This document shows positions 8,266-8,945 of a DNA stretch of 14,199 nucleotides, one piece after another. The translations under genes and the position numbers were made by a program. A model generated the notes under the pieces. It was not told the DNA's origin, did no database searches, and worked only from the letters and a program-made list of their open reading frames with translations. The stretch lies in the IMG/VR virus record IMGVR_UViG_2740892231_000004; one strand, 5' to 3'. This DNA comes from a virus. Lineage: Duplodnaviria > Heunggongvirae > Uroviricota > Caudoviricetes. The number at the start of each line of letters is the position of its first letter. Positions within the stretch are counted from its first letter, which is position 1.

Positions 8266-8640
8266 ATGAAAAAGGATCTGAAAACGCTGGCGCTGGCCAG
8301 ACTGTCAGGGTTTCGTCATAAAACGGTGAAGGTGCCGGAATGGGGTAATGTCAGCGTGGTGCTGCGGGAGCCTTCGGCAGAGGCCTGGTATCTGTGGCAG
8401 GACGTGCTCAATGGTGATGGAGAGGATGACGATACTCTGTCGGTGGTGGCGAAAACCCGCCGTAACCTGGAAGCGGATGTGACGCTGTTCTGCGATGTCC
8501 TGTGTGATACGGATCTGCAACGGGTGTTCACTCCGGACGACCGTGAGCAGGTGCTGGCCGTCTATGGTCCGGTACATGCCCGCTTGCTGCGTCAGGCACT
8601 GGAACTGATCGCTGATGCAGAGTCGGTCAGAAAAAAGTAG
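8266..8640 (+). CDS. Tail assembly chaperone (lambda G-like)
   Basis: 124-aa acidic protein between the major tail and tape measure genes. ATG 8266 with AAGGGGA SD preferred over track start 8218. Ends ...AESVRKK-TAG with a slippery site in its last codons. Confidence 0.7.
   Translation: MKKDLKTLALARLSGFRHKTVKVPEWGNVSVVLREPSAEAWYLWQDVLNGDGEDDDTLSVVAKTRRNLEADVTLFCDVLCDTDLQRVFTPDDREQVLAVYGPVHARLLRQALELIADAESVRKK
8631..8637 (+). promoter_or_regulatory. Programmed -1 ribosomal frameshift slippery heptamer A_AAA_AAG (G to GT)
   Basis: AAAAAAG at 8631-8637 is in X_XXY_YYZ register with the G frame (codons AAA 8632-8634, AAG 8635-8637), just before TAG 8638-8640. The -1 frame is open from 8637 to TGA 8943-8945. 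Confidence 0.6.
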
Positions 8641-8945
8641 CCCGCCCGGAAATTCGCTTTCTGATGCGACTTGCGCTCCGTCTGGGGCGCACCTTATCCG
8701 AACTGCGGCACAGCCTGAGTGCGAGCGAGGCGATGATGTGGATGGAGTTCGACAGGGTATCCCCGCTGGGTGATGAGCGCGGGGATATCCGTAATGCACA
8801 GATCGTGAAAGCGGTTTTCGGGGCACAGGGGATGAATGTTGCACTGAAGGACGCCATGCTCTGCTGGGGCGAGGATGAGGATAAGCCGGAGGTGGATCCG
8901 TTTGCGGCGCTGGAACACGCGCTGAGCTTTGCAGCACAGTCATGA
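8637..8945 (+). CDS. T-like extension of the tail assembly chaperone, expressed only as a G-T fusion by -1 frameshift (fusion = 8266..8636 joined to 8637..8945)
   Basis: Open frame directly downstream of the slippery site in the -1 frame, with no independent SD. The conserved G/GT arrangement lies between major tail and tape measure genes. Confidence 0.6.
   Translation, partial: VARPEIRFLMRLALRLGRTLSELRHSLSASEAMMWMEFDRVSPLGDERGDIRNAQIVKAVFGAQGMNVALKDAMLCWGEDEDKPEVDPFAALEHALSFAAQS

Follow-up and report, generated by a model that had tools for sequence, protein, structure and literature searches.

The −1 ribosomal frameshift that joins genes G and T of bacteriophage lambda is reportedly described by Levin, Hendrix and Casjens in 1993 and by Xu, Hendrix and Duda in 2004, 2013 and 2014, and G/GT has been a textbook case of recoding since 1993 and 2004. 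In lambda, the G protein and the GT fusion are made at a ratio of about 30:1, with G binding the tape measure protein and T binding the major tail protein; tail assembly depends on both proteins, neither of which is present in virions (Atkins et al. 2016). The frameshift is conserved among long-tailed phages (Atkins et al. 2016, citing Xu, Hendrix & Duda 2004). The heptamer A_AAA_AAG, an established ribosomal shift site in dnaX, is the shiftiest in E. coli (Atkins et al. 2016), because E. coli has a single tRNA-Lys, for which AAA is a better pairing partner than AAG.

Other members of the system are recognized in existing records and in a published survey. The HK97 record carries gp13 together with a joined CDS described as 'translated due to a -1 frameshift', while in the Bcep176 record 69/69' are annotated as the equivalents of lambda G and T. 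A cluster of 41 genes similar to an HK97 protein, named 'phage tail assembly chaperone' (Phage_TAC), was defined by Antonov et al. 2013 (GeneTack; NAR 41:6514; PMC3711429), who tested two cassettes from it. One of these (fs-gene 15618692), assayed in E. coli with a GST-MBP reporter, shifted frame at 7% ± 0.79 (PMC3711429, Table S2), a value that belongs to a short reporter cassette with C at the base numbered 8627 below and in which ribosomal and transcriptional slippage read alike; the sister cassette, G_GGA_AAG_CCG_TAA, gave 6% (PMC3711429).

Here, we analyse a site of this kind in a stretch of DNA of 14,199 nucleotides (the window, by which we mean the whole stretch analysed), which is 98–99% identical to long-tailed Stx1/Stx2-converting lambdoid E. 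coli phages (JLK-2012, 2851, YYZ-2008 and many Stx1a/Stx2c phages). The A_AAA_AAG heptamer at the end of its G-like gene is very probably a programmed −1 ribosomal frameshift site of the G/GT type, within the HK97-like tail module of a Stx-type lambdoid prophage (Table 1). This interpretation, already put forward in an earlier note on the sequence, is supported by the family assignment of both halves, by synteny, by a frame relation and slip position conserved among homologues, by the annotation of HK97 and Bcep176 and by the published assay, and nothing that we found contradicts it. The site is already known at three levels, namely the system (lambda/HK97 G/GT), the protein family and the specific cassette.

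Table 1. Features of the G/T locus and its neighbours, in window coordinates.
Feature	Position	Strand	Basis
Major tail (tube) protein gene	7535..8251	+	Pfam Phage_tail_2; C-terminal Ig-like domain (Ig_2/Ig_3/I-set); upstream synteny neighbour
Shine-Dalgarno (SD) sequence of G, ATAAGGGGA	8248..8256	+	Anti-SD duplex −8.4 kcal/mol, 9 nt before ATG 8266
G-like tail assembly chaperone gene, 124 aa + TAG	8266..8640	+	PF06222 Phage_TAC_1, phrog_344, PDB 2OB9
Slippery heptamer A_AAA_AAG, in the G-frame register	8631..8637	+	Direct reading; conservation; lies within the published 7% cassette
Predicted T extension after the slip, 102 codons + TGA	8637..8945	+	Translation; PF06223; phrog_337; phrog_14766; substitution pattern
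TAG stop of G, directly 3' of the heptamer; possible 'shifty stop' contributor	8638..8640	+	Direct reading
ATG annotated as T start, probably an internal Met of GT (FLM motif)	8664..8666	+	Annotation; no SD; conserved upstream residues
Local 8-bp GC-rich hairpin, judged a non-stimulator	8672..8691	+	MFE fold; starts 34 nt after the heptamer
Tape measure protein gene, HK97-type, 1080 aa	8993..12235	+	PF06120 Phage_HK97_TLTM E=6.8e-89; TMP_3; Tape_meas_lam_C; downstream synteny neighbour

The genes in the window run in the order portal, head-tail connector genes, tail terminator, major tail protein, G, T and tape measure protein, with the G and T reading frames consecutive between the major tail gene and the tape measure gene. 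Existing annotation of JLK-2012, of 2851 and of E. coli in RefSeq places a major tail gene at the matching site and includes the tape measure gene too. The G protein aligns end to end with PF06222 (E=3.4e-61, 205.1 bits against a cutoff of 25, profile 1–124 of 124), the sole Pfam family matched by this half; it also matches phrog_344 (tail assembly chaperone) and the HK97 tail assembly chaperone gp13 (PDB 2OB9, E=3.9e-45), and its limits are those annotated in the GenBank/RefSeq records examined. A search of NCBIfam returned no match to either the G or the T half. The G frame closes with TCG GTC AGA AAA AAG TAG, of which 8629–8640 is AGA AAA AAG TAG, so the heptamer covers the last two sense codons of G in the X_XXY_YYZ register and abuts the stop, just as the earlier note had it.

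The −1 frame is closed upstream by TGA at 8613–8615, is open from 8616 and ends at TGA 8943–8945. Because of this upstream stop, a shift into the −1 frame must fall within the 25-nt overlap with G, which holds exactly one canonical heptamer. The open frame claimed in the earlier note therefore stands, with a trivial miscount in its 103 codons: the frame has 104 sense codons counted from 8631, of which 102 lie past the G stop. The predicted GT fusion is thus 226 aa (124 + 102), and translation of both frames confirms the junction peptide that had been forecast, ...SVRKK/VARPEIRF..., with SVRKKVARPEIR and SVRKKVARPEIRF as the junction-spanning residues. The T half matches PF06223 Phage_tail_T, the family of lambda minor tail protein T (E=1.4e-18, 67.5 bits against a cutoff of 25.9, profile 1–71 of 73, window 8718–8930), which places both halves above the gathering thresholds of their respective families, and it also matches phrog_337. 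A further profile, phrog_14766 (224 positions), aligns with G at positions 2–121 and with T at 123–224, colinear over the junction; since it matches both halves, it is a profile of fused GT proteins.

When the predicted fusion was used as a tblastn query, homologues from 98% down to ~35% identity were recovered, always as two pieces in different frames. For a closer comparison we assembled the window and 38 homologous loci of 35–67% identity (39 sequences in all), comprising eight phage loci with annotation and 30 prophage loci drawn from various enterobacterial species, the latter collected by a contig scan with a five-sequence alignment. In 37 of the 39, T is −1 to G. One exception (L105) carries an indel within G, and its T is still −1 to the C-terminal part of that gene; the other (L111, from a degenerating symbiont genome) has a run of A9 where its relatives have A8, giving a hard-wired predicted fusion, ...AKKK-VTQPGMQFLM..., that reproduces the predicted trans-frame junction exactly.

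At the homologous position, every one of the 37 loci carries an in-register A_AAG, and 22 have a canonical heptamer. A_AAA_AAG itself occurs in 16 (that is, in 15 divergent loci besides the window), abutting the stop in ten, 12 nt before it in four and 30–33 nt before it in two Burkholderia phages. Lambda's heptamer, G_GGA_AAG, is used by six of the 37 (users include mEp390 and L113–L118), the HK97-type G_GAA_AAG by seven, and x_GCA/GTA/GAA_AAG followed directly by a stop by eight. Elsewhere in these genes AAG makes up 32% of Lys codons and A occupies 17% of third positions; constraint on A_AAG therefore acts on the nucleotides themselves. Products joined at A_AAG align as K/V-x-x-P-(G/L)-x-x-F-L-M-x-L-A-L-R-x-G-R-T-L, and both the frame relation and the slip site are kept across divergent homologues despite drift. 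Arranged by slip site, the loci form a series of variants in which the P-site half and the stop position drift and A_AAG stays fixed.

Variation over a shorter range was examined in 82 close relatives, which comprise 55 haplotypes with 99 variable sites in 680 nt; a scan of viral contigs yielded as matches only relatives at 91–100% identity. The heptamer and stop, AGAAAAAAGTAG, are invariant among the 82. Substitutions in T fit the −1 frame best, with 26 synonymous there against 5 and 9 in the other two frames, a pattern of purifying selection on the T domain as read in −1. The segment 8628–8663 has one variable site against 5.1 expected per 36 nt. This dip is real, but it is not independent evidence for the site, because it forms part of a broader low-diversity block (8536–8685), and other such windows exist. 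An attempt at dN/dS on the 26-nt stretch preceding ATG 8664 met with only one substitution.

The published 7% cassette matches window 8611–8685 in 74 of its 75 bases, a stretch that runs through the heptamer and the stop and on for a further 45 nt. The sole mismatch is at 8627, two codons 5' of the P-site codon, where the cassette has C and the window T (Ala versus Val in G); among the close relatives C is found in 78 of 82 and T in four. The dual-reporter experiment proposed in the earlier note has in effect already been published, and a low-percentage trans-frame fusion is on record for this sequence through the GST-MBP assay of a near-identical cassette, outside the native phage context.

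On the G/GT interpretation, most ribosomes would translate 8266–8640 and terminate at TAG to give the 124-aa G protein, and a few per cent would slip back by one base at 8631–8637. The tRNAs on AAA and AAG would re-pair to AAA AAA, given the preference of tRNA-Lys for AAA (tRNA mechanics that we infer), and the slipped ribosomes would go on to read GTA GCC CGC... in the −1 frame to 8945, yielding the 226-aa GT. On the lambda model, both free G and the G portion of GT may coat the tape measure protein, with the rare T domain recruiting the major tail protein. Slip frequency would set a fixed low ratio of G to GT in the native context, roughly 13:1 if the reporter value holds there.

A first rival explanation, which we consider very unlikely, makes the heptamer incidental and has translation start anew at ATG 8664, independently or by termination-reinitiation after the G stop, to give T as a 93-aa protein of its own. 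This is how the databases present it: every GenBank/RefSeq record examined calls a separate 93-aa T from this codon, often named 'phage tail assembly protein T' (PGAP), contrary to the expectation in the earlier note that ordinary gene callers would miss T. The ATG is the first start codon in the −1 frame, it lies 24 nt past the G stop, close enough for reinitiation to be conceivable, and the Met of FLM that it encodes is present in most homologues. Its anti-SD pairing, however, reaches at best −3.5 kcal/mol against a median of −3.3 kcal/mol for random ATGs in the window, while the clear gene starts there score mostly from −6 to −12.5 kcal/mol. The earlier statement that T has no SD of its own is therefore correct, and T lies in the −1 frame, overlapping the 3' end of G, lacking initiation signals of its own. 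Independent initiation also sits poorly with the nine residues before the ATG, which are conserved as protein (V-x-x-P-x-x-x-F-L), and with the distance from slip site to FLM, which is nearly constant while the G stop wanders from 0 to 33 nt. In two Xenorhabdus loci (L107 and L110) the Met of FLM is replaced by Leu (CTG) and the first ATG of the T frame comes 83 nt past the G stop; an earlier ATG present in close homologues is ATT in the window. The fusion product was, moreover, measured directly in the reporter (PMC3711429), and Phage_TAC is not among the clusters listed in that paper as having internal initiation or coupling (PMC3711429).

What the annotation lacks is the G-T join and the nine residues VARPEIRFL. 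The exact 226-aa GT fusion is absent from a collection of 15 billion protein sequences in which G and the 93-aa T are both present, and free T protein as annotated is probably never made as such.

A second rival, which we also judge very unlikely, would place the slip in transcription: RNA polymerase slippage on the run of six A's would add one A in some transcripts, and normal translation of these would give the same GT. The product would be identical (KK-VARPE), and the reporter assay cannot tell one mechanism from the other. Relatives with longer runs (A7–A8) exist, efficiency rose with A-run length in another of the Antonov clusters (PMC3711429), and the A9 of L111 points to a run that is labile in the DNA itself. 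Against this, A6 is short for appreciable slippage, the same heptamer is an established ribosomal shift site in dnaX, and the invariant in-register A_AAG, with its third-position G, matters for re-pairing of tRNA-Lys and not for polymerase. Polymerase slippage is unlikely as the main route, because the −1 arrangement persists in members with only three or four A's at the site (G_GGA_AAG, G_GAA_AAG, x_GCA_AAG), and the cassette with G_GGA_AAG shifts as well as the A6 one. As for the heptamer being a chance feature of a Lys-Lys C-terminus followed by an unrelated or decayed reading frame, the C-terminus of G is indeed Lys-rich in many homologues, so that AAA and AAG are to be expected, but the idea is effectively refuted by the measured frameshifting, by selection on T (a Pfam family member) in the −1 frame and by the use of AAG, not AAA, after an A-ending codon in 37 of 37 loci. 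AAAAAAG is expected 1.9 times in the window over both strands, from which, by our own arithmetic, the chance of an in-register copy at one of the ~7 positions of the overlap is ~5e-4.

Within the G/GT interpretation, the comparison of slip sites also suggests a more tentative extension, which we regard as possible but on balance doubtful. The A_AAG tetramer may be the only invariant recoding element, with tandem slippage being interchangeable with a second route in which a single P-site tRNA-Lys slips as a slowly decoded stop occupies the A site (a 'shifty stop'). Lineages might then drift between tandem-slippage heptamers and stop-assisted tetramers with the G:GT ratio held, and both routes could contribute in the window. 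The suggestion comes from the eight non-HK97 loci that lack a canonical heptamer and have other P-site halves (x_GCA_AAG, G_GTA_AAG, A_GAA_AAG), in all of which a stop abuts AAG; over the whole set it does so in 18 of 37 loci, the window among them.

The earlier note had drawn attention to the likeness to dnaX and to the need to look for a downstream stimulatory structure. The likeness holds for the heptamer, which is identical, in the same host and on the same tRNA-Lys (mnm5s2U34) basis, but does not extend to the dnaX stimulators. In dnaX, an SD-like AGGGAG lies upstream (−7.4 kcal/mol); in the window, the best anti-SD duplex in 8614–8625, at about the ~10 nt upstream spacing of a dnaX-type element, scores −2.4 kcal/mol against a background median of −2.8 kcal/mol, and an upstream SD-like stimulator was accordingly set aside. 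dnaX has a strong stem-loop a few nucleotides downstream and shifts at ~50%, whereas the window has no significant or conserved structure, and no stem-loop or pseudoknot at the 5–9 nt downstream spacing of the dnaX type, the near-identical cassette shifting at ~7%. The fold of 8638–8720 (83 nt) was no better than shuffled sequences (z=−0.77), RNAalifold on the homologues returned no consensus structure downstream, and an Rfam search gave no match to a frameshift element. The local hairpin at 8672–8691 was considered as a stimulator and rejected: only 70% of cells are paired across 31 homologues, covariation is essentially nil and a slid control is equal, and the codons of the conserved ALR(L/M)GR motif account for its sequence. 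A site with the dnaX heptamer lacking the remainder of the dnaX cassette agrees with a shift of a few per cent rather than 50%. The two systems also differ in outcome, since the dnaX shift shortens its product and the shift in the window would lengthen it.

With lambda G/GT, the window shares its logic, its gene order and the PF06223 T domain, and low efficiency is common to both, at a few per cent (30:1 against the 7% cassette), with no signs of a stimulator found; the slippery sites differ (G_GGA_AAG in lambda, A_AAA_AAG in the window), and the G half of the window matches PF06222 alone among Pfam families. HK97 gp13/gp14 belong to the same PF06222 and PF06223 families at ~59–61% identity, lie likewise between the major tail gene and an HK97-type tape measure gene, and have T in −1. 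The slip position is the same relative to FLM (REK/VSTPGVKFLM in HK97, RKK/VARPEIRFLM in the window), although the HK97 site, as placed by the junction alignment, would be a non-canonical G_GAA_AAG lying 15 nt before the stop, whereas A_AAA_AAG abuts the stop in the window.

With G/GT long established and the HK97 homologue annotated, the locus adds nothing new to the biology. Its value is mainly one of annotation quality, the module being common in E. coli genomes (the tail module was found in 1246 of 5426 complete genomes) and in many Stx-converting phages.

Two minor observations concern the interval between T and the tape measure gene. HK97 carries the moron gp15 and a terminator there, whereas the window has a terminator-like hairpin alone. 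The sole Rfam hit was a sub-threshold isrK-like match 3' of the T stop; a link to a Gifsy-1-like antirepressor module was considered and dropped, since a DNA search met the element in the same phage group alone, always in this interval and with no ant gene.

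In the G/T family, in which the tail assembly chaperone gene G is extended in the -1 frame into T, a canonical X_XXY_YYZ heptamer is absent at 15 of the 37 homologous loci with T in the -1 frame relative to G (slip-site variants were noted at L004, L009, L097, L101, L102, L104, L117, L119 and L121). Some of these sites are of the phage HK97 type, G_GAA_AAG, placed 15 nt 5' of the stop, while eight others carry x_GCA_AAG, G_GTA_AAG or A_GAA_AAG with a stop codon immediately 3' of AAG. This pattern suggests an alternative route in the family, whereby a single tRNA-Lys would slip with the assistance of the stop codon.

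Two further loci depart from the usual frame relation. In Candidatus Symbiopectobacterium endolongispinus (L111:1857-1866), the A-run of the slip site is A9 where related loci have A8, and therefore the C-terminal part of G and T share one frame, a hard-wired GT fusion (AKKKVTQPGMQFLM). The frame of G in this locus is also broken a second time, close to the N-terminus. The arrangement is probably a product of prophage decay or a homopolymer error; it shows the slip-site A-run to be mutationally labile. In Leclercia adecarboxylata NCTC13032 (L105:1799-1803), a frame change at about residue 101 splits the G homolog, probably a pseudogene or sequencing error, and T remains -1 to the C-terminal part of G, with an HK97-type G_GAA_AAG slip site.

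The window holds six copies of the heptamer AAAAAAG where 1.9 are expected, and one of 200 shuffles reaches six. Of the copies outside the G/T slip site, the only one on the plus strand is not in the register of a -1 heptamer.

Hairpins, AAAAAAG copies and the Ig-like domain in the window
Feature	Position	Strand	Context
Terminator-like hairpin with T-run	7456-7472		near tail-terminator gene end (7469)
Terminator-like hairpin with T-run	7498-7512		5' of annotated major tail gene start (7535)
Terminator-like hairpin AACCGC-TGAG-GCGGTT with T7 run (U-tract)	8953-8975		between T stop (8945) and tape-measure ATG (8993)
AAAAAAG	2288-2294	+	inside ORF 896-2833, register AAA_AAA_G
AAAAAAG	3845-3851	-	strand opposite annotated genes
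AAAAAAG	7476-7482	-	strand opposite annotated genes
AAAAAAG	12448-12454	-	strand opposite annotated genes
AAAAAAG	14113-14119	-	strand opposite annotated genes
Ig-like domain (Pfam)	residues ~172-250		numbering of ORF read from 7466

The segment 8907-8974, made up of the final ~40 nt of T and the hairpin downstream of it, gives a full-length but sub-threshold Rfam match to isrK (27.7 bits, where the gathering score is 50; E between 2e-4 and 6e-4), which in the Gifsy-1 isrK-orf45-anrP module is the Hfq-binding sRNA/leader. The isrK-like element occupies the T/tape-measure interval in all relatives found, with no antirepressor gene beside it in any of them, and the corresponding position in HK97 holds a moron (gp15) and an annotated terminator. 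The hairpin may be a terminator, the 3' end of an sRNA or what remains of a moron. Both the T C-terminus and the hairpin are polymorphic in the population, since 23 of 83 close relatives have two indels here, one of 3 nt in the region of the T stop (8944) and one of 1 nt in the hairpin loop/stem (8958). In Klebsiella phage ST147-VIM1phi7.2 (L009:1212-1468), an AAA-family ATPase gene in opposite orientation follows T where the window has its tape-measure gene, and is another insertion at this junction.

The two upstream hairpins both lie between the tail-terminator and major tail genes, and in HK97, too, putative terminators are annotated around the major tail gene. The major tail protein itself (7535-8251) has at its C-terminus an Ig-like domain matching Pfam Ig_2, Ig_3 and I-set, a frequent decoration of siphophage tail tubes, and is named 'immunoglobulin domain-containing protein' in RefSeq.
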